Source: Dictyostelium discoideum | Taxonomy: Eukaryota | NCBI GenBank assembly: GCA_000004695.1 | Contig: CM000150.2 | Coordinates: 3,456,001 to 3,520,000 of the forward strand | Direction of reading: 5' to 3' | Length of the DNA: 64,000 nucleotides | Shown: in pieces, positions 7,314 through 58,549 of the stretch | Layout: the number at the start of each line of letters is the position of its first letter | How positions within the stretch are numbered: position 1 is the first letter of the stretch | The notes under the pieces: model-generated | The model's database searches: none | What the model was told of the DNA's origin: nothing | What the model saw: only the letters and a program-made list of their open reading frames with translations | Position numbers and translations under genes: made by a program

Positions 7314-7758
7314 ATGAAAAAAAGAAATAGTTTTCTTTTTATTATATTTCTATGTCTAATTTGTATGATTAATATTGCTTCATCACAAAATTTTATACCA
7401 TTACATGGGGATCAAGATAAAATAGCAGATAAAATTTGTCAACAAATTTCTCAAGGTGCTGTTCAATGCCTAGACCCATGCAAAGAAAGTTATGAGATTT
7501 TCACTTGCAAACTTAGACCAAATACCGATAAATATGATATAGATACAATTAACTTAAAAATAGTTCCTTCATCAGGTATTGAAACCTCTGAAGTTATAGA
7601 AAGTTTTGTTCAATTTAGTCATCTAACCAAATTAACAATTACCGAAGAAATTACAGTTAGAGATCTTTGGGGAAAACTTTTATATGAATATCCAAGTCCT
7701 TTAGAAATGTATGTAAAAATAATAACCTTTTAAAAAATTTAAATTTCTTGTATAATTT

Positions 7759-7804
<46 letters not shown>

Positions 7805-9781
7805 ATATAGTTATATTGTTAGACAAATGGAAAAAATGCCAGATAATTTAACAATGCCAAAAAGATTATGGAAACTTACATTTGGAAAGATTGGTGTACA
7901 AATGCCTTCAAATATGTTTAATGTTACAAGTGATTTAGAATTTTTACAAATTGATACCATTTTGAACACTGGTGTTAATGTATTTCCAGCAAAACATCCA
8001 GAACCAAAGAGTTTGAAAACTTTTATTGGACCAATTACATATTATTCAAATTTCTTCCCATATCCAAGTTATGCATTGCAATTTTGCGAAACCATTCGTC
8101 TTAGAGTCTGGAATGATTACTCTGGTACAAATTATAAAGATTTTAGATTACCAGTTCTATCAAATTTATTATATCTCAAAGATTTAACATATGAATTTAT
8201 TAATAATGATTTTACCGCTCAAATTTTTACATTTGATTATGCAATCTCATCAAATAAAGCTTTGAAATCTTTAACTATTACTGGTAAAGGTATGAGAATG
8301 ACAAGAGATCTTGATCTTTCAAATTTAGCAAAAGGTGCTCATATTTCAATTGATAGAAGTTGTGATGAATTTTTAGCATGTGGTAGTGAACCATGTTTAA
8401 AATTACCAGTAGATGGTTCTTTGTAAGTTTTTTTATATATATATAATATAAATTTTCATTACTTTTATAATATTACTATGTATTAATTAATATATTTTTT
8501 TTTTTTATAAAAATTTATAGATATATTAATAAATGTAATTTCACACTTTCAAAAATTGATTTTTTAAATGCTGTATCAGTTACAATTTTAAATAATAATC
8601 TTGCACAAAATTTACCAAATTTAAGAATTAATTATCCAAAATTAACAAGATTTGATCTTGGTGATAGTAATTTCGCAGGTACAGTTCCAAATGAATATTG
8701 TTTAATTAAAGAAAGTGTATTAAGTGTTGGAAACAATAGATTATCAGGTGTTGTACCTTCATGTTTCGGTTGTGTTGGTGGTGCATTTGTTGCTAGTCAA
8801 GGATTATTCCCAAATAGTTTTACAGATTTTTCAGAGAGTGCTGCACCAACTGCTTGTGAAACTTTCCAAGTATTCGATAATTATTCAAAGGTTGCAAAAA
8901 CTGATGGTAGTTCAGTTATTACTGTTTATGGTCAAGATTTCGGTTGGACATCTACAACCAAACAAGGTGACGCAAGCATTAACATAATTGTACCAAATAG
9001 ACAATTAGAACTTGTTATTCCAAAAGGTGTTGGTACAGATTTGAAATATGTAGCAACTTTCCCTGTTGGTCCAAATGGAATCGATAAAGAGTTTACATTT
9101 AGTTATCAACAACCAGTTATTCGTTATTATTCATTCCTTAAAACTGACACTGCTAATTTCTTTGTTATTAATGGTGATGGTTTCGATTATCAAGGTATTA
9201 ATTCAGTTGAAATTGAAAAAAGTGAATTTCCAAAAAAAACATACGATGGACCAAGTGCTGACGTCGGTGCAACATATGGTGAAATTAAATTACCATTGGA
9301 TGATGTTATTATTGATAATGAACTCGCATCTGGTGCTGTTTTCAAAATTACAGTAACTGTTGGTGGTCAAACCTCAACACAACAATTCACTTATTATGAT
9401 TCAATTACAATCTCTGATGTTGATACTATTAAATTACATACAATTGGTGGTGTTCAAGAATTCAAGGGTCAATTCCCCCCAGTTGATGCAAGTGCCGTCC
9501 AAGTTACTGTTAATAATGTTCCATGTGATATTCGTAAATATTCTGAAACTTCCATTGAAATTGCTTATCCAGCTGTACCAGGTGCAAGTCATTATCCAAT
9601 TAAAATAGTTGTTGGTGGTCTCACTGCTGGAGAATTGGTTGAATTCATTGAGTTACCAACACATAGACCAACATTCGATCCAAATGATGGTTGGATGCCA
9701 ACTGGTTCATCATCAACTTTATTACCAAGTTTCTTTTTAATTTTTATTATTTCTTCTTTATTAATTATTAAATTATTTTAA
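7314..9781 (+). CDS. secreted, probably GPI-anchored leucine-rich-repeat + IPT/TIG-domain protein; 3 exons 7314..7708, 7811(or 7823)..8422, 8521..9781, about 750 aa
   Basis: Signal peptide MKKRNSFLFIIFLCLICMINIASS; GTATGT donor 7709, acceptor tatatAG 7810 (alternative AG 7822), GTAAGT donor 8423, acceptor tttatAG 8520; exon 3 frame open 8521..9781 with plant-type LRR motifs (LSGVVPSCFG, NFAGTVPNEYC) and Ig-like IPT repeats, ending in hydrophobic GPI-signal-like tail SSSTLLPSFFLIFIISSLLIIKLF*. Confidence 0.7.
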
Positions 9782-10539
9782 ATAAAAACCATAAAAAAAA
9801 ATATATATATATATATATTTAAAACAAAAAAAATAAAAAAAACAAAAAATATAATTATATTTTTAATTATTTTATTGCCAATAATTTAATTTAATCAACT
9901 CATTTTTACTTTTAATATTGATTCAATATCCACCAATATAAATATATTTAAAACAAAAAAAAAAAAAATAAAAAAAAAATAAAAAAAATAAAAAAAAAAA
10001 TAATAATAATCAAAATAAATCAGATTCTTTGAGATACTCATTCTCATTAGTTAAATGGATTATTATAATTTTTTTTTTTTATTGTTATCTAACTTAAGTT
10101 AATTATTTTCAACATTTTTTTTTTTTTTTCTTTTTTTTTTTTAAAAAAATTCTATAATCAAAATTTTATATTTTTTTTATTTTTTATTATTTTTTTTACT
10201 AATTTGAGTATTTTTATTTAGGTTTTGTATTTGATGTGGTTTTGTTTTACAAATAAAAAAATTCAAATTATTTTGGGATAATTAATAATTAATTCCCGCA
10301 TTATGACGCAATATAGGGTGTGATTGATGAATAAAAAATATCAGCTAAATTTTTTTTTTTTTTTTATTTTTTATTTTTTTTTTATTTTTTAATTTTTTTT
10401 TTTTATAAAAACTCAAATAAAATAAAAAAAAAAAAAAAAAAAAAAAGTTCATTTTTTTGAAAAGACACAACCACCAAATATAATTATAATCATTTTCTTT
10501 TTTTTTTAATTTTTTTTTTTAAAATATATTAAATTCCTT

Positions 10540-20703: not shown

Positions 20704-23389
<2,686 letters not shown>

Positions 23390-24475: not shown

Positions 24476-25471
24476 ATGTCTTTTAAAGCTATAATACTAT
24501 TGTGTTTGATAGCACTTTGTAAGTATTTATTATTATTTTATTTTATTTTATTTTATTTTATTTTATTTTATTATAATTATTATAATTCTAATATTTTTTA
24601 TTATATTGCAATTTTATTATTATTTCTAAATAAAAAAAAAAAAAATAAAAATAAAAAAAAAAAAAAAATAAAAAAAAAAAAAAAATAAAAAAAAAAAAAA
24701 ATGGGTAATAGGTGCTGAAAAAGCTTTAGGTGCAATTTTTGAATTAAAAATTGAAACACCTGATGTACAATTTTGCACTATATCAAATGGAACCTATAAT
24801 GTTGATTTTAGTGGTCCATTCTTTAGATTTTCCGATTCATCTTTAGCAGAAGAATATATAGTTAGAGACGTAGTAGGTGGATTTTATTATATTAATCAAG
24901 CAGGAAGAAATGCCAGATTTCACTTAGACGAATTCATTTACAATTCTCTCTATGGTAATAATTCCTATGAATATGCAACCAACTCAACCCTTGCATGTGC
25001 TTCTAATATGGCAACATATATGTGCAGTTACACTTTTGTTGGAAGTAAGTTTACTATTTTTACTATTATCAATTTCATTCTATTTTTTGTATATAACAGA
25101 AATTCTAACCATTTTTTCAATATTTATTTATTTATTTATTAATTATTCAAAAAGCTACACCTCCATGTAATGCACTTTGTGACCCAGTAGCTACATGTGC
25201 AGATGGATTTACTTATGGAGGTCAAGTTATTCCACCTGCATCTGTTTCAGACTGTGAATTCCAAGGTTCAAGTGCATCTGATTGCTCAGCAATTAATATG
25301 AAAGGTTTAATGGGCGACTGGAAACACAAAGTCGTAGAATTTATACCTCCAACTATTGATATACATCCAGGTGGTTTAGTAAGAGGATCTTTGTTAGGTT
25401 TTGGTGTTTTAATCGGACTCTTATTGGTAATCGGTTCATTAGGTGTCATCATGAAATTCCAAAATAAATAA
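24476..25471 (+). CDS. small Cys-containing type-I membrane / secreted protein (about 230 aa); 3 exons 24476..24518, 24712..25044, 25155..25471
   Basis: Exon 1 MSFKAIILLCLIAL (signal peptide) + GTAAGT donor; acceptor taatAG 24711; exon 2 CAEKALGAIFELKIETPDVQFCTISNGTYNVDF...MCSYTFVG + GTAAGT donor 25045; acceptor caaaaAG 25154; exon 3 TTPPCNALCDPVATCADGF... ends in TM helix GSLLGFGVLIGLLLVIGSLGVIM KFQNK*; phases 1 / 1 consistent. Confidence 0.6.
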
Positions 25472-26293: not shown

Positions 26294-26393
26294 GTTGATC
26301 TCTACATCCATATATAAATTATTATCTGAGCTAATGGTACTATTATTATTATTACTGGAGATGTTGTAAACTAATAGCAAATATTAATTAGTC

Positions 26394-27644
26394 TTACTCA
26401 TCATGATTTGGTGTATAAATACCCTCACGTGATAAATGTAATGCTTCTTTACTTTTTGAAATAATACCGTCACTAGATAAAAGAGCTAAACGCAAATTAT
26501 TTTTAATATTTTGGTTTTTACACTTAATTACACTATTTATCATTCTATCAATTGTTTTGTATGTTTTAAATCTACTAAATAGTTCTCTGTTGATTATATT
26601 ATTCCAAACTTTTGGTTCAATTCCTCCATTTTTGATGAGTAGTATGTTTATAAAATCACCAATAATGTTTACAAATCCTTTATGACCATTGGTAAGAGTA
26701 TAGGTATCTTTAATAATGGATTGACTAATAGTTCTTCTTTTGAAAAATTTTGGACCAACATATTACTTTGTGCATTAAAAGGAGAAGCATTTGATTCTGT
26801 TTTAAGTTCTAAAATTGCAAATGTTCCTACTACAGTAATAGACTTTTTGTAATAAAATTAATAAATGGGGAGTAGTGTATGTGTAAGCTATTTTAAAGTT
26901 ATTTACTTTTATTGCTATTAAAGCAGAAGTTTTCCATGATCTGAATTCAGACAAGATTTCAGTGATAATTTCTTTTTTAAAACTAAATATGGCATCGAAT
27001 TCATCAATGACAAGATAAACTTTGTTATTACCAAATAATTTTGAACCAACTTTTAATAAAGATTTAATTTCAATCCAATCCATTTTAAATATATCTGTAT
27101 CCCCAGGTTTAAATGGAGGATTAAGATAATCATATATTTTGAGAATGAAGTTTCTCCAGAAATCAATTGATTCACAAACAACAATTCTACCTTCTAAATT
27201 AAAACTTTGAAAATAAAAATGTAATTATTTAAAAATCAATATTCACATGACATATATTTGAACTAGTTATATTAATTAAAACAATATATATATAATATAA
27301 GTATACTTACTATATTGATGAGTGACCATCAAGCTCATAAACCAATTCGGTGGCTCTAACCACTGTTGTGGTTTTACCAGAAGATCTTGGTCCACAGAGG
27401 CAGGTATATTCATTATCCATCATTGGATCTTTTAATACTCGGCCTTGTTCTGGTTCTAAAAAATAATAGGTTGAGTTTCTTTGTGGTTCTAAAATCGGTC
27501 CATGTATACTAAATCTAATGTTAACTTGAGGTTCTGATTTTTTTTTGTTAATAAAGTTGGTGAAGATGGTGGGGCATCTTCAGTATTTGCAGTTGTTGTG
27601 ATTGTTGAACTTGTTGATGTTGTAATTTTCATTTCTTCTAACAT
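26394..27644 (-). CDS. P-loop NTPase (AAA+/ORC-Cdc6-like Walker A GPRSSGKTT, Walker B LVIDEFD); reading frame interrupted, exon structure unresolved, possible pseudogene
   Basis: ATG 27644 MLEEMKITTSTSS...PTLLTKK runs into a T9/A9 homopolymer (27538-27546) after which the Walker-A exon ...EPEQGRVLKDPMMDNEYTCLCGPRSSGKTTTVVRATELVYELDGHSSI is in a frame one base off; clear GTAAGT donor at 27310 / acceptor AG 27205 (intron 27205..27310); exon 26802..27204 YFNLEGRIVVCESIDFWRN...KVYLVIDEFDAIF...TSALIAIK...; C-terminal segment ...IGDFINILLIKNGGIEPKVWNNIINRELFSRFKTYKTIDRMINSV...HDE* (stop 26394) is in the same frame but separated by three in-frame stops. Confidence 0.4.
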
Positions 27645-28287
27645 AGCAAAATATATATCGAATTCCTTTTACTTAATTTCTCTAATGCTTCTTTATCCAT
27701 GTTTATTATTAATATATTAATTGTTACTCTTTATAATAAAAAAAAATGTAAAAAATTATATTTTCAAAAAAAAAATTAATAATTAAAAAAATAAAAAATA
27801 AAAAAAATAAAATAAATAGCTTTTTGAATAATACAATAAAAAGAATATATTAAATAAATACTATACCCAGTAAAAAGAAGGTTACAATTCAATATTCAAC
27901 AATCACTGGTTTTGGTCCATGTTATGCTAAATTTGTTTTATCAGGTATGTCCAAAGCATTGGATGATGAACTTACAATTTCATAGTTGGTTGGAACATCA
28001 ATGTCATTTGCTATTAATTTAATTCCAGACTATAAAACTTGTGAAGGTGATCCAATGGAAGAAATTGCAAAACAAACACCAGTTGATGCAAATTAAGTTT
28101 TCAATAAGATATAAAATTTATAGTGAGTCATTAAAGTTATTTATATATATAATTTAAATTATTTTTTAATAATACAAGAATTGATGACTCACTTTTTTTT
28201 TTTATTTTTTTATTTTTTTATTTTTTTTATTTTTTTTGCAATTTCACCTTTTTTTTAATTTTATTTCATTATTATTAGATATACAAA

Positions 28288-38799: not shown

Positions 38800-39621
38800 T
38801 TTATTTAATTTTTTATTATTTATTACTTAATTATTTGATTATTATTTATTTAGTTTTATTTAATTAGTTTTATTATTAAGTTTTTGTGTGGTGTGGTGTG
38901 TTATAATGAGTGCATGCTTTCCTTTTAAAAAGTTTTTTTTTTATTTTGTATTGTTTGAATAAGTGTTTTGTTTTTTTTTTTTTAATTTTTTTTTTTTTTT
39001 TTTTAAAACTGATAAACTTTTTTTTAAAAAATTTAAAAAAAAAAAAAAAATAAAAAAAGAACTGTTTGGTCACCAATTTTTTTTTTTTTATATTTTTATT
39101 TTTATTTTTTGATTTAATTTCAAATTTTCTATTTAATGGTAGTGAAATCTTTTTCAGATGAATTAAATAATGAATGTAATAAAATCAATTATCTAGCACC
39201 AATGCAATGATCATTTGAAAAATTATCATTATCAAATTATCATTACATTGTTGTTATATAATTTGGACATATCCAACTCTTACTTTAGATTCACCTTTAT
39301 ATTTAGATACATCAACCATTTTTAAACCATCAATTAAAAGTTAATTCATCACAATTATTACCTAAAACTTTATTATTTGTACCATGGTTCATTATTGAAA
39401 ATTGATTTTGTTGTGGTTTAGATCCAAAAACTATGTTTTTTTGATGTGATTATAAACTTTTTTTTTTTTTTTTTTTTTTTACTGATTTTTTTTCTCTCGT
39501 AGAACCTCACTCCTTTATTCATTGATGCGCATTAGATGGCGCAATCATAAAAAGAAATAAATTTAGTAGTTTCCAAGAAATAAACACTTCTTCCAAGTTC
39601 ATCTACATAAAACAAGGTGGT

Positions 39622-56074: not shown

Positions 56075-58549
56075 TTATTGTTTATCTTTACCATAGACTT
56101 TATTAAGATCATTATTTTCCATACCAAATTCCATTAATACTTTTTCTTGTTGTTTACCCTTTGGAAGTTCAACAGCCTCAGTCCAAGTAGGTTTAAATCT
56201 TAATTCTTTGCTAGCTTCATACTCATCGTAGACTTGTTGTAACTCTTCTTTAGTGTAAGTACCATTCAACCATTTGTTGTATTCTTCCAACTCTTGATTG
56301 GTGAGACTATATACATTTGGATTATAAATTGTGAAAGTACCATTCTTGTAGGAGAAGATACCTAAAGATTTAGCTTGTCTAATGGTTTTAACGATCTTCT
56401 TTTGATGTTTTAAACAATTACCACTGAAATGTCTTGGAAGCATATCACCGGCTTTATTTAAATAGATGGAAAGGAAAGGAGTATTGAGTGGATCAACTTG
56501 CCAATTTGGATTTTGACAAAGGAGACATTTTGGATTCTTTTTTTTTGGTGTAAATAATTTACCAGTGACAGGATGATAGATTGGTGGATCGATATTTGAT
56601 AGGGAACCTTGAGAAACCTCTTGAACGATTTCATTCATAGTTGAAGTGTGATCGTTGTATTCTTGTTCCTTCTTTTGATCGAGTAACTCTTTTTGTTGAT
56701 CGTATTTGTATTTAATGAAATTACGAATCATCATTGGATCTCTGGTCTCGAGTAAATCTTTTTGGAGTTGTTTCTCATTTTCATAGAGTTTAGCTTTGTA
56801 CTCTTCCATGAAAAGGTGGGATTCATATTGTGGTTGATCATTGACGAGATCGATCTTGGTTTGGAAATCATTTAAAAGACCCTCTTGAATGACTCTATCT
56901 TTGAATGCTTTAACCATTGGTGAATCCTCTTTGGTGACCAATACTCTATCCTCTGGGAGCATAATTTCATGGGTTGGGAACTCTTCAGCTTCATTTGGTG
57001 AAAGAGTGACGTGATCACGGAATGAATCACCTAACATCATTGTTCTCCTCTCCTTTTCATTTTCAAGATATTCATAGACTGCGTCCATATATTTACCTTC
57101 AGAAGGTAAGTTAAGACTATATTCAACTAAATCACTACCAAACATATCAATGAAAGTATGTAAGGCATCCATTTCTGATAGAGAAAACTCTTCCAAGATC
57201 TCTTCAACCTCTCTTGCTGATCCTTTTCCATTGGTAAAGCAAATCAACTTGTTGGCAGCGGATTTCAATTTATCAAGTTTTTTTTGACTCTTTACATCCT
57301 CTTCATACAATTTCTCGTATGGCATGGTGAAACCATCATCGAATTGTTTCAATAATTGACCATCTTGATAGATGTAATTACCAGAGTTTTCACTCGAGAA
57401 ATCCAATGAATAACGAGTTAAATCTTCAATACCAAGTGGTTGTTGTAAAAGTTTTTTCATATCAATTGAACCATCCTTTTGAATTGCACCTGCCTCTTTA
57501 GCTTTATATCTTAAAATAGTATTATTTCTAAAGAGAATATCCAATCTCTTCTGCTCCAATGATGAATTGAATTTATAATCTTTTGCTATCTCTTTAATTT
57601 GTAAATCTAAAATCTTTTGTTGAGCTATTCCAATGACTTTTTTCTCTTTCTCTGATAATTCAACTTGAGAGTCGAGTTGGTCGTCATCGGCTTCATTCAC
57701 CATTGAAAATGACTTTAAAGTTTCTGCTGAAATTTCAAAATCATCTCTAAATATTAATTTATCTTTTAATGGAATACCATCATCGAGGAAATTCATAACC
57801 ATGAGTTTAAATTGTGGGTCTTTGTTTGATTGATCTTCCATCTTTTCAATTAACATTTTGATTTTACTTTCTTTATTCTCTAATGAAAATTCTTCATCAT
57901 GATCTTCTTCATCAAGTTGATCAATTTCTTCATCTATTCCTCCAACTTTTTGATCTGCAACCAATGGTGATGGGAATGCATCACGCAAAATTGGGTCATA
58001 TCTGATTTTTTCGGTTTGTGTAACTTTGTGGATTGGAATTTTCATACCAGTGGTTTCATCAATTGGTCTTTTAGATTCAAATTCTTTCTCTTTATCTTTT
58101 TTTAATTTCTCTGCTTCGGCATCCAAGAGACCGTTGGCTTTAAAACGTTCAAATTCAAATTTATTCACTGATGCAAGTTGTGATCTAGTGACAACACCTT
58201 TTTTCTCTAAAAATCTCTTCCACAATTGTAATTCTGCTTCTTTTTGTTCTTTACTTTGTATTGAGAATTGTTCAATCTTTGGATCTAATGCATTTTCAAT
58301 TGATGAAACTTGTTGTTGAAGATTATTAACTGTATCTAATTGTCCTAAAAGTCTTGATTTTGTTATCTCTTTAATTAATTCTGATTTCTTTTTAATTAAT
58401 TCTCTATTCTCTTTAAATTTTTCAAATGATATTGAATGATCATGATTACCACTATGATCATTACAATAATTTCTTGTAATTGAAATTTGACCTTTATTTT
58501 TTAAAAATAAATTTTTATTTTTAATTGATAATCTTATTATTGATTGCAT
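56075..58549 (-). CDS. 824-aa mitochondrial protein with a C-terminal ribosomal protein bS18 (MRPS18) domain and long coiled-coil N-terminal extension
   Basis: C-terminal ...CLLCQNPNWQVDPLNTPFLSIYLNKAGDMLPRHFSGNCLKHQKKIVKTIRQAKSLGIFSY matches the S18 signature (C..C...I.YKN..LL..FI...GKILPRR.TG.C.K.QR.L..AIKRAR..GLLP); N-terminus MQSIIRLSIKNKNLFLKNKGQISITRNY is presequence-like; the remainder is charged coiled-coil; continuous ORF. Confidence 0.65.
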   Translation of the reverse strand: MQSIIRLSIKNKNLFLKNKGQISITRNYCNDHSGNHDHSISFEKFKENRELIKKKSELIKEITKSRLLGQLDTVNNLQQQVSSIENALDPKIEQFSIQSKEQKEAELQLWKRFLEKKGVVTRSQLASVNKFEFERFKANGLLDAEAEKLKKDKEKEFESKRPIDETTGMKIPIHKVTQTEKIRYDPILRDAFPSPLVADQKVGGIDEEIDQLDEEDHDEEFSLENKESKIKMLIEKMEDQSNKDPQFKLMVMNFLDDGIPLKDKLIFRDDFEISAETLKSFSMVNEADDDQLDSQVELSEKEKKVIGIAQQKILDLQIKEIAKDYKFNSSLEQKRLDILFRNNTILRYKAKEAGAIQKDGSIDMKKLLQQPLGIEDLTRYSLDFSSENSGNYIYQDGQLLKQFDDGFTMPYEKLYEEDVKSQKKLDKLKSAANKLICFTNGKGSAREVEEILEEFSLSEMDALHTFIDMFGSDLVEYSLNLPSEGKYMDAVYEYLENEKERRTMMLGDSFRDHVTLSPNEAEEFPTHEIMLPEDRVLVTKEDSPMVKAFKDRVIQEGLLNDFQTKIDLVNDQPQYESHLFMEEYKAKLYENEKQLQKDLLETRDPMMIRNFIKYKYDQQKELLDQKKEQEYNDHTSTMNEIVQEVSQGSLSNIDPPIYHPVTGKLFTPKKKNPKCLLCQNPNWQVDPLNTPFLSIYLNKAGDMLPRHFSGNCLKHQKKIVKTIRQAKSLGIFSYKNGTFTIYNPNVYSLTNQELEEYNKWLNGTYTKEELQQVYDEYEASKELRFKPTWTEAVELPKGKQQEKVLMEFGMENNDLNKVYGKDKQ

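Follow-up and report, generated by a model that had tools for sequence, protein, structure and literature searches.

The locus annotated as DDB_G0269752 lies on the minus strand of the Dictyostelium discoideum AX4 genome, at positions 27700-26350 of the window, that is, of the whole 64,000-nt stretch analysed here (contig CM000150.2, positions 3,456,001 to 3,520,000 of the forward strand). Database records give it as a 323-aa protein (XP_646248.1, UniProt Q55D83), and no papers were found in the literature for DDB_G0269752, its paralogue DDB_G0277693, the SRA run numbers or the assembly accessions. All features described below are on the minus strand unless otherwise noted. The remnant of exon 1 (27311-27700) begins at ATG 27700-27698 (MDKEALEKLS...) and ends at the GTAAGT donor of intron 1. 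This stretch is in a single frame throughout in the orthologue of D. cf. discoideum, and in the intact paralogue P0003 it is one uninterrupted exon of 169 codons. It contains a Walker A motif, GPRSSGKTT (27367-27393), which occupies the invariant G, K and T columns of the family alignment. Intron 1 (27205-27310; 106 nt, GTAAGT..AG, 14% GC) and intron 2 (26843-26906; 64 nt, GTAAAT..AG, 23% GC) are genuine, and both are found at the same positions in P0003. Between them lies exon 2 (26907-27204) with a Walker B motif, LVIDEFD (27014-26994), whose columns are also invariant in the family alignment. A sub-threshold tRNA-like Rfam match in exon 2 was set aside as chance, as ARAGORN found no tRNA there and the orthologous stretch gave no tRNA match. 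The remnant of exon 3 (26398-26842) stops, in the frame as written, after ...PMVIKDL. The relic of an intron 3 donor follows at 26386-26397 (GA/GTAAGACTAATT), and the annotated stop codon (TAA, 26396-26394) results from reading through this donor; an intron begins at exactly that codon in both D. cf. discoideum and P0003, with exon 4 beyond it.

Nucleotide alignment of AX4 with D. cf. discoideum gives gaps of 1, 13 and 43 nt in addition to a missing exon 4. The first lesion is a 1-nt deletion near 27668 (27660-27673), where AX4 has AGTAA-AAGGAATTC against AGTAATACGGAATTC in D. cf. discoideum; it puts MDKEALEKLS out of frame with EFDIYFAML..., at a point where P0003 has LSDKEF. The second lies at a run of nine A (27538-27546), where AX4 reads TTAAC, a gap of 13 nt and then AAAAAAAAATCAG, against TCAACTCCAGAATCAATAATAAAAGAATCAG in D. 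cf. discoideum. The net loss of 13 nt changes the frame by -1 and removes an (S/T)P(E/Q)SI motif that the family alignment shows to be conserved in relatives. Exon 3 has lost 43 nt at a junction between 26734 and 26733; this deletion takes out EVTKIMEMNIKQKGV and shifts the frame, and the helix lost with it (EEV..LF..Y...KG) is present in all seven of the relatives aligned. The fourth lesion, a deletion of about 760 nt with its junction at 26350-26361, corresponds to D. cf. discoideum positions 9422-10184. Gone with it are the remainder of intron 3, the whole fourth exon, which encoded a PD-(D/E)XK-like domain of about 210 aa, and the original stop codon. A tblastn search with orthologue residues 368-577 found no trace of exon 4 in the whole 64-kb window. 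Every AX4 lesion sits in coding columns conserved in the orthologue and seven relatives, and lesions 1, 3 and 4 are not within any long homopolymer.

All four lesions are genuine genomic states common to at least two D. discoideum haplotypes. The A run is nine letters long in de novo Logan contigs of five different runs (SRR26869246, SRR26869266-268 and SRR28564543) and in the assembly GCA_054883475.1 (L007), and the five contigs differ from the window at five to seven other positions, which makes them a different haplotype that is independent of the reference. Every other lesion recurs in these two sources as well: the Logan haplotype and the ACTFIT assembly both show lesion 1, and the 43-nt junction is seen in the Logan contigs and L007. 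Additionally, all five Logan contigs carry a further deletion of 2 nt (AT) at the end of exon 1 (27318-27319), a polymorphic frameshift at a site where AX4 and D. cf. discoideum retain the ancestral ATATAG. A 37-aa ORF of exon 1 is not on record.

The D. cf. discoideum orthologue is syntenic, with a divergent metallophosphoesterase gene and a squalene-hopene cyclase-like gene on its flanks. It carries three lesions of its own, all unlike those of AX4: a TAA in frame, a loss of 14 nt following Walker A, and a frameshift in exon 4. No lesion is demonstrably common to the two. Over 305 codons dN was 0.071 and omega 0.66 (sd 18.5, nd 49.5), small counts that pool both lineages and from which we estimate that omega cannot be clearly told apart from neutrality. 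Among the flanking genes, most have an omega of 0.009-0.34, and dN at the locus is 3- to 70-fold above that of its neighbours. For exon 2 alone omega was 0.44. The overall value of 0.66, being below 1, may reflect some constraint during part of the divergence time, or constraint persisting on the ATPase core. The decay is not recent, contrary to a possibility raised from the sequence alone, since the orthologue too is non-functional and dN/dS lies close to neutrality. Constraint was probably lost at about the split of the D. discoideum and D. cf. discoideum lineages or before it, with drift since.

The sequence-only reading of the window had described a P-loop NTPase gene starting at ATG 27644 and disrupted at the A9 run, and several of its observations stand. 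A T9 lies on the plus strand at exactly 27538-27546, corresponding to A9 on the minus strand; the ORF from ATG 27644 reads MLEEMKITTSTSSTITTTANTEDAPPSSPTLLTKKNQNLKLTLDLVYMDRF to a stop codon (27644-27489); and the frame with Walker A (SEPQVNIRF...GPRSSGKTT) is one base off, such that a single added A fuses both frames. The resulting ORF of 51 aa (MLEEMKITT...TKKNQNLKLTLDLVYMDRF, then stop; 27489-27644), found as an exact protein on eight Logan contigs, combines about 35 codons of decayed N-terminal coding sequence with a tail that is out-of-frame read-through beyond the A9. Each half of the broken stretch has homology to the N-terminal part of the syntenic orthologue and of paralogues that are intact, so the stretch is more than a chance ORF. 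Among the 280 A/T runs of at least 9 nt in the window, the A9 is one of only four with exon-like composition. The interpretation of the break needs revision, however. The ancestral start is ATG 27700 and not ATG 27644, the two being parted in frame by the 1-nt deletion; the event at the run was the 13-nt loss described above and not a slip from A10 to A9; and the A9 is one of at least four disabling lesions and not a single one. The pseudogene that had been offered as one alternative is supported by these several lesions relative to the orthologue and the intact paralogues.

The annotated 323-aa model (P0001) could be rebuilt exactly, and two atypical introns were thereby exposed. The first, intron A (27534-27672; 139 nt, GTAAAAGG...TCAG), covers lesions 1 and 2, with its donor upstream of ATG 27644 and its acceptor 4 nt past the A9. 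The absence of intron signals between the two frames, as previously claimed, holds from ATG 27644 to the A9, but a GT..AG intron of the annotation (27672-27534) spans the whole region. Intron B (26734-26759; 26 nt, GTTGGT...GAAG, 31% GC) ends exactly at the 43-nt deletion junction. Typical Dictyostelium introns measure 60-250 nt and have less than 15% GC (Goldberg et al. 2006, PMC1420674), with a median of 104 nt (PMC4683709); intron B is far under this length range, and both introns exceed this GC content. The intron A stretch has exon-like GC and is homologous to coding sequence in D. cf. discoideum, P0003 and P0004. P0001 omits the EFDIYFAML...PPSSPTLLTKK segment encoded inside it, which is homologous to the N-termini of the orthologue and of P0003. 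P0003 itself has introns only at the three positions inferred for the DDB_G0269752 locus. A second pipeline's model, P0155, has a 5' patch identical to that of the reference, but differs at lesion 3 and in its other patches. Introns A and B are most probably annotation patches that cover lesions.

It is very unlikely that the annotation is nonetheless right, with real introns at 27672-27534 and 26759-26734 and a functional 323-aa P-loop protein made from ATG 27700. Both intervals do have GT..AG ends, the spliced CDS is open and two pipelines agree on the 5' patch; moreover, D. cf. discoideum retains both splice dinucleotides of the 139-nt interval, and taking this interval out keeps the frame in both species. 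Yet this interval, at 30% GC, encodes N-terminal homology across two shifted frames where the intact paralogue has no intron, while the 26-nt interval, with GTTGGT as its donor, falls well below the usual intron length of the species and adjoins the deletion of a family-wide helix. The product would also be without the C-terminal domain found in every full-length relative examined, the pipelines disagree on the remaining patches, the non-reference haplotype adds a 2-nt frameshift in exon 1, and omega is 0.66. An intron bridging the two frames or an intact upstream start, either of which had been named as evidence against a broken gene, is thus formally echoed by the annotation, but the intron is not credible and the start is not intact.

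A truncated functional remnant, in which a short P-loop protein would be translated from an internal Met-Met at 27423 (MMDNEY...) through exons 1-3, fares no better and is scarcely probable. It would retain Walker A and Walker B and the canonical splice sites of introns 1 and 2, and the omega of exon 2 agrees with it. Against this, the start falls just 10 residues before the P-loop, with loss of the conserved FSTNG...YYYLEP block, and past the 43-nt deletion the frame comes to its end within the lid domain. In the non-reference haplotype the frame across the junction of exons 1 and 2 is broken, the D. cf. discoideum orthologue is frameshifted by 14 nt directly after Walker A, and the elevation of dN over the neighbouring genes argues against it as well.

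Two further explanations centre on the A9 itself. A sequencing or assembly error hiding an intact gene with a true run of A10 (or A7) would find some support in the abundance of A/T homopolymers in this genome and in the fusion of the frames by one A, but the miscall is refuted by the repeated A9 of the five contigs of a distinct haplotype and of GCA_054883475.1, and an A10 would leave the 1-nt, 43-nt and exon 4 lesions in place, so its probability is negligible. Recoding by programmed -1 ribosomal frameshifting or transcriptional slippage on A AAA AAA, yielding a full-length product, is just as remote: the A9 does hold a classical slippery heptamer and the shift needed is -1, equal to one extra A, but the orthologue has no A run, 13 more nt and a single frame at the site (ATAAAAGAA), no downstream RNA structure was found (MFE -2.4 kcal/mol, z = +2.1, weaker than all 200 shuffles), the ORF entering the A9 is severed from the ancestral start by lesion 1, and translation would run into the 43-nt lesion all the same, with exon 4 missing as well. 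Programmed frameshifting was rejected on the fold test and the orthologue comparison.

The locus very probably descends from a gene with four exons, a member of an amoebozoan family whose proteins combine an AAA_35-type AAA+ ATPase with a PD-(D/E)XK-like domain at the C-terminus. Homology to proteins above the AAA_35 (PF14516) threshold is strong (tblastn of P0003 against the window, E = 1e-79; phmmer of P0002 against P0001, E = 3.6e-146). The gathering score of 27 bits is passed by P0002, P0003, P0004, P0005 and P0019, the orthologue scoring 29.6 bits and the paralogues 30.4-52.6 bits. The frame-repaired AX4 translation reaches 18.6 bits and P0001 has no precomputed Pfam domain; because this score is below the gathering threshold, we file the locus as a decayed descendant and not as a member of AAA_35. 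The core AAA+ fold was confirmed by matches to RFC, ORC/Cdc6 and 2qen. Every full-length relative examined has, at its C-terminus, a domain of about 200 aa with the signature E..Y / R.D.V / LE.VA / H..R..Y, which the AX4 locus has lost. Because the AlphaFold2 model of P0003 is confident in the ATPase core only, assignment of this domain to the PD-(D/E)XK fold draws on motif alignment and the order of secondary structure, and not on a fold match. A PDB sequence search with P0004 returned no match, and PADLOC defence-system models gave no significant match to the intact family members. Searches of a protein word index with P0003 and the family profile were dominated by words of low complexity and did not recover family members already known.

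Prokaryotic homologues among the PF14516 proteins are about 533 aa long and have a C-terminal PD-(D/E)XK domain, whereas the AX4 locus has no nuclease-like domain. These homologues show GRMDL...IIETK...Q..L..Y together with sub-threshold PDDEXK_9 and NERD matches, and the motif aligns with D550, E568 and Y588 of P0003. In the eukaryotic branch, in contrast, the Lys of ExK is replaced by Val or another residue (ELV), and nuclease activity is uncertain even in the intact eukaryotic members. P0003 was considered as an intact syntenic orthologue that would date the decay, and was set aside as a paralogue in view of its different neighbourhood (ILEI and NUDIX genes). The intact AX4 paralogue DDB_G0277693 (P0004), on another chromosome, shares its domain order and conserved blocks with this family (FSTNG..YYYL.P, Walker A/B, SPFNI, TNGHKGLVN and, C-terminally, R.DLV..LE.VA..H..R..Y..WV.HFT) and is 39% identical to the orthologue. 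Unlike the window locus, P0004 is open over its full 674 aa and keeps the whole C-terminal domain, and other D. discoideum assemblies conserve it as intact models. The family might have come from prokaryotic AAA_35 + PD-(D/E)XK proteins (STAND/NTPase-nuclease, defence-like), with parallel decay reflecting birth-and-death turnover of an immune-like family. This is a speculative proposal that we regard as unlikely, and it draws on the non-overlapping decay of one syntenic copy in two sister lineages, the segregating frameshift and the intact paralogues elsewhere.

Taken as a whole, the evidence leaves us highly confident that window positions 27700-26350 hold a non-functional, multiply disabled pseudogene. 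The reading frame is broken by a 1-nt deletion after about codon 10, by the net 13-nt loss that left the A9 and by the 43-nt deletion in the lid region of the ATPase, and the deletion of about 760 nt took away exon 4, so that translation would end on the read-through donor of the former intron 3. The 323-aa reference protein would then be an artefact of automated gene prediction, in which the breaks were presumably bridged by a 139-nt exon-like 'intron' and a 26-nt 'intron' and the truncated end was accepted. Such a protein almost certainly does not exist, and we infer that no functional protein is made from the locus. The genuine intron positions are common to the intact parent or paralogue, which points to duplication followed by decay, rather than retroposition, as the source of the locus.

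DDB_G0269752 is a pseudogene of an ordinary kind, in need of curation: it should be relabelled as such, and both patch introns should be dropped from intron datasets. Two more recent assemblies, of D. discoideum and of D. cf. discoideum, mask the damage in a like manner but with other fake introns. Pipelines thus still hide pseudogenes in AT-rich genomes, with inflated proteome counts and contaminated intron statistics as the result. The comparison also outlines an undescribed family of AAA_35 ATPases with a PD-(D/E)XK-like domain, whose intact AX4 member DDB_G0277693 may merit functional study.

Masked pseudogenes in D. discoideum have already been documented, with criteria for their recognition, in an analysis of the kinome (Goldberg et al. 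2006, PMC1420674). DDB_G0269752 shows features of this kind, namely frameshifts in conserved regions, coding sequence inside an annotated intron, implausible introns, lesions that are real in the genome and relaxed constraint. As in the masked kinase pseudogenes, its probably bogus introns are coding-like and depart from the 60-250 nt and less than 15% GC of genuine ones. Unlike those cases, it derives from an AAA_35 ATPase-nuclease-like gene and not from a protein kinase, and its syntenic orthologue in the sister lineage is independently dead.

DDB_G0269752 of Dictyostelium discoideum AX4 (27700-26394, minus strand; window GC ~20%) is an old pseudogene with at least four defects, the frame break at a run of nine A being one of them, rather than the product of a recent inactivation at one break, which a sequence-only reading had offered as one of two alternatives. 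The details noted in that reading were recovered: T9 lies exactly at 27538-27546 of the plus strand, the minus-strand ORF from ATG 27644, MLEEMKITTSTSSTITTTANTEDAPPSSPTLLTKK, runs into A9, the Walker A frame (SEPQVNIRF...GPRSSGKTT, with GPRSSGKTT at 27393-27367 on the minus strand) is offset by one base, and one added A fuses the two frames.

Lesions in AX4 were scored by nucleotide alignment with the syntenic orthologue of Dictyostelium cf. discoideum (protein model P0002, 577 aa), which shares gene order with AX4 and is flanked by a divergent metallophosphoesterase gene and a squalene-hopene cyclase-like gene. On the minus strand, a 1-nt deletion lies at ~27668 (AX4 AGTAA-AAGG, D. cf. discoideum AGTAATACGG). 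In-frame gaps of 9 and 15 nt in AX4 precede a 13-nt gap located exactly at A9 (AX4 TTAAC, 13-nt gap, AAAAAAAAATCAG; D. cf. discoideum TCAACTCCAGAATCAATAATAAAAGAATCAG), and a 43-nt gap in exon 3 has its junction at 26734/26733. The fourth lesion is a loss of ~760 nt (D. cf. discoideum 9422-10184) comprising most of intron 3, the entire exon 4 and the stop. From 26349 downward AX4 is 93-95% identical to the D. cf. discoideum 3' flank. What reads as a stop in AX4, TAA at 26396-26394, is the read-through GA/GTAAGA donor of the former intron 3, and tblastn found no trace of P0002 residues 368-577 in the whole window.

An exhaustive phmmer search returned 288 relatives, the best-scoring mostly 500-700 aa long, including the intact AX4 paralogue DDB_G0277693 (674 aa) and proteins from Tieghemostelium and Nolandella. 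Also among them is an intact, non-syntenic paralogue of 652 aa from another D. cf. discoideum isolate (P0003). Its gene has four exons, the first an unbroken 169-codon ORF that runs from ATG across the N-terminal region and includes Walker A; the positions of its three introns coincide exactly with those of AX4 introns 1 and 2 and of the AX4 donor-stop. In the family alignment, the sequence under annotated intron A is coding, with P0003 LSDKEF... opposite the 1-nt lesion and an (S/T)P(E/Q)SI.K motif at the A9 position. The 43-nt deletion removes a helix, EEV..LF..Y...KG, present in 7/7 relatives, and the C-terminal domain is universal. Because intact relatives keep coding sequence at these sites, all four AX4 states are derived and disabling.

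Intact relatives pass the gathering score of Pfam PF14516 (AAA_35), and the repaired AX4 translation falls below it (18.6 vs 27 bits). In an AlphaFold2 model of P0003, the AAA+ core is modelled with confidence and gives matches to RFC, ORC/Cdc6, 2qen (an archaeal Walker-type ATPase) and TnsC. At the C-terminus of prokaryotic homologues (~533 aa) lies a PD-(D/E)XK signature, GRMDL...IIETK...Q..L..Y, accompanied by PDDEXK_9 and NERD matches below threshold; in the alignment it falls on D550, E568 and Y588 of P0003, all nearly invariant. The ExK lysine is replaced (ELV) in the eukaryotic branch. We infer a PD-(D/E)XK fold for the C-terminal domain from these motifs and from how its secondary-structure elements are ordered, rather than from a fold match.

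The D. cf. discoideum orthologue is also dead. Its exon 1 keeps a single frame between MEKEAL and Walker A, yet contains an in-frame TAA. Additionally, the loss of 14 nt immediately past GKTTT causes a frameshift, and exon 4, a single exon in P0003, is divided between two frames with only 4 nt between them. None of these lesions was seen in AX4, where the exon-4 lesion is not scorable, that exon having been lost. Because the gene carries these three defects, P0002 (8001-10153 of its locus) is itself a patched model, avoiding the TAA via a 51-nt GC..AG "intron", the 14-nt frameshift via an alternative donor and acceptor, and the exon-4 frameshift via another "intron". Over 305 alignable codons, AX4 and D. 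cf. discoideum differ with dS 0.108, dN 0.071 and omega 0.66 (sd 18.5, nd 49.5), a ratio that, as estimated from the sd and nd counts, cannot be clearly told apart from the ~1:4 expected under neutrality. Most flanking genes have omega 0.009-0.34 and dN 0.001-0.027.

Independent D. discoideum sequence carries the same lesions. Eight Logan contigs are on record for the exact 51-aa ORF from ATG 27644, possible only with A9, and eight for the 93-aa exon-2 ORF. Five contigs were examined, from runs SRR26869246, SRR26869266, SRR26869267, SRR26869268 and SRR28564543. All five share a single non-reference haplotype, which differs by substitutions at 27489, 27426, 27339 and 26740, by 9 inserted nt at 26384 and by one additional T at 27746. 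Wherever these contigs cover the sites, A9, the 1-nt lesion and the 43-nt junction are present, as are the donor-stop and the two genuine introns. This haplotype has an extra 2-nt deletion at 27319-27318, absent from AX4 and D. cf. discoideum, which is a further, polymorphic frameshift. Across 28000-26000, the independent assembly GCA_054883475.1 does not differ from the window.

Three observations make a truncated but functional remnant unlikely: this polymorphic exon-1 frameshift, the frame break that immediately follows Walker A in D. cf. discoideum, and the raised dN. Recoding at the slippery A-run lacks support: the D. cf. discoideum orthologue lacks such a run and is in frame at the site, there is no downstream structure (MFE -2.4 kcal/mol, z +2.1), and the remaining lesions would persist.

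The annotated model is very unlikely to be correct. Its 323-aa protein, P0001, is exactly rebuilt from five exons (27700-27673, 27533-27311, 27204-26907, 26842-26760 and 26733-26394) and starts at ATG 27700 (MDKEALEKL), not at ATG 27644. Annotated intron A (139 nt, GTAAAAGG...TCAG, 30% GC) takes out the ORF from ATG 27644 together with A9, and annotated intron B (26 nt, GTTGGT...GAAG, 31% GC) ends at the 43-nt gap junction. Intron 1 (27310-27205, minus strand; 106 nt, GTAAGT, 14% GC) and intron 2 (26906-26843, minus strand; 64 nt, 23% GC) look genuine. Introns of the species typically measure 60-250 nt with <15% GC (PMC1420674), and the median intron length is 104 nt (PMC4683709). The GC of introns A and B, the short length of intron B, the coding homology under intron A and the comparison with intact relatives all speak against the model; the reference annotation masks the pseudogene. 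The 336-aa model from GCA_054883475.1 (P0155; 3001-4532 of its locus) departs from the AX4 model in how it patches the 43-nt lesion and the 3' end, and its C-terminus is made up from 3'-flank sequence. Differing patches between pipelines would be expected of a dead locus, and P0002 and P0155, from two recent assemblies, are patched models of a dead gene. Of the two explanations first offered for the A9 break, the pseudogene stands and a homopolymer miscall is excluded, since independent assemblies also read A9.

Several other features were observed in the window. A tRNA candidate in exon 2 (27146-27208, minus strand; Rfam 27.3 bits vs gathering 29, E = 0.0065) was judged a chance match; ARAGORN finds no tRNA there, and the orthologous D. 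cf. discoideum stretch has no tRNA match. In the divergent promoter region, an exon-like relic at 27875-28093 (plus strand; 32% GC vs 7% in the 5' flank 27701-27860) translates as KKVTIQYSTITGFGPCYAKFVLSGMSKALDDELTIS, stop, LVGTSMSFAINLIPDYKTCEGDPMEEIAKQTPVDAN, stop, with a single in-frame stop. No Pfam match was found for it, nor a parent sequence in either the window or the other loci compared; it is only partly kept in D. cf. discoideum (~7650-7810 of locus L001), with a local duplication, and could be a second decaying gene fragment at this locus. The interval that separates the pseudogene from the metallophosphoesterase gene, which is transcribed divergently, contains an inverted pair, GTGAGTCAT ... 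ATGACTCAC (28184-28192 and 28123-28131), of TGA(G/C)TCA heptamers ~60 nt apart; as both copies are conserved in D. cf. discoideum, they are candidate promoter elements. A small, Cys-rich neighbour gene (24702-25384, plus strand; L001 10766-11739, model of 230 aa; ...ATPPCNALCDPVATCADGF...) has no Pfam domain, and its two exon blocks give dN/dS of 1.7 and 2.8 between AX4 and D. cf. discoideum (nd 23 and 18; sd 3.8 and 2.0), pointing to positive selection or to strongly relaxed constraint. Among 280 A/T runs of >=9 nt in the window, the only others with exon-like flanks (GC >= 0.28), at 23082-23090, 39458-39480 and 56538-56546, could point to additional frame problems or to low-complexity runs in coding sequence.

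The value of the DDB_G0269752 finding is chiefly for curation. Masked pseudogenes are well documented in D. discoideum (PMC1420674), and this locus is therefore a further instance of a known phenomenon.
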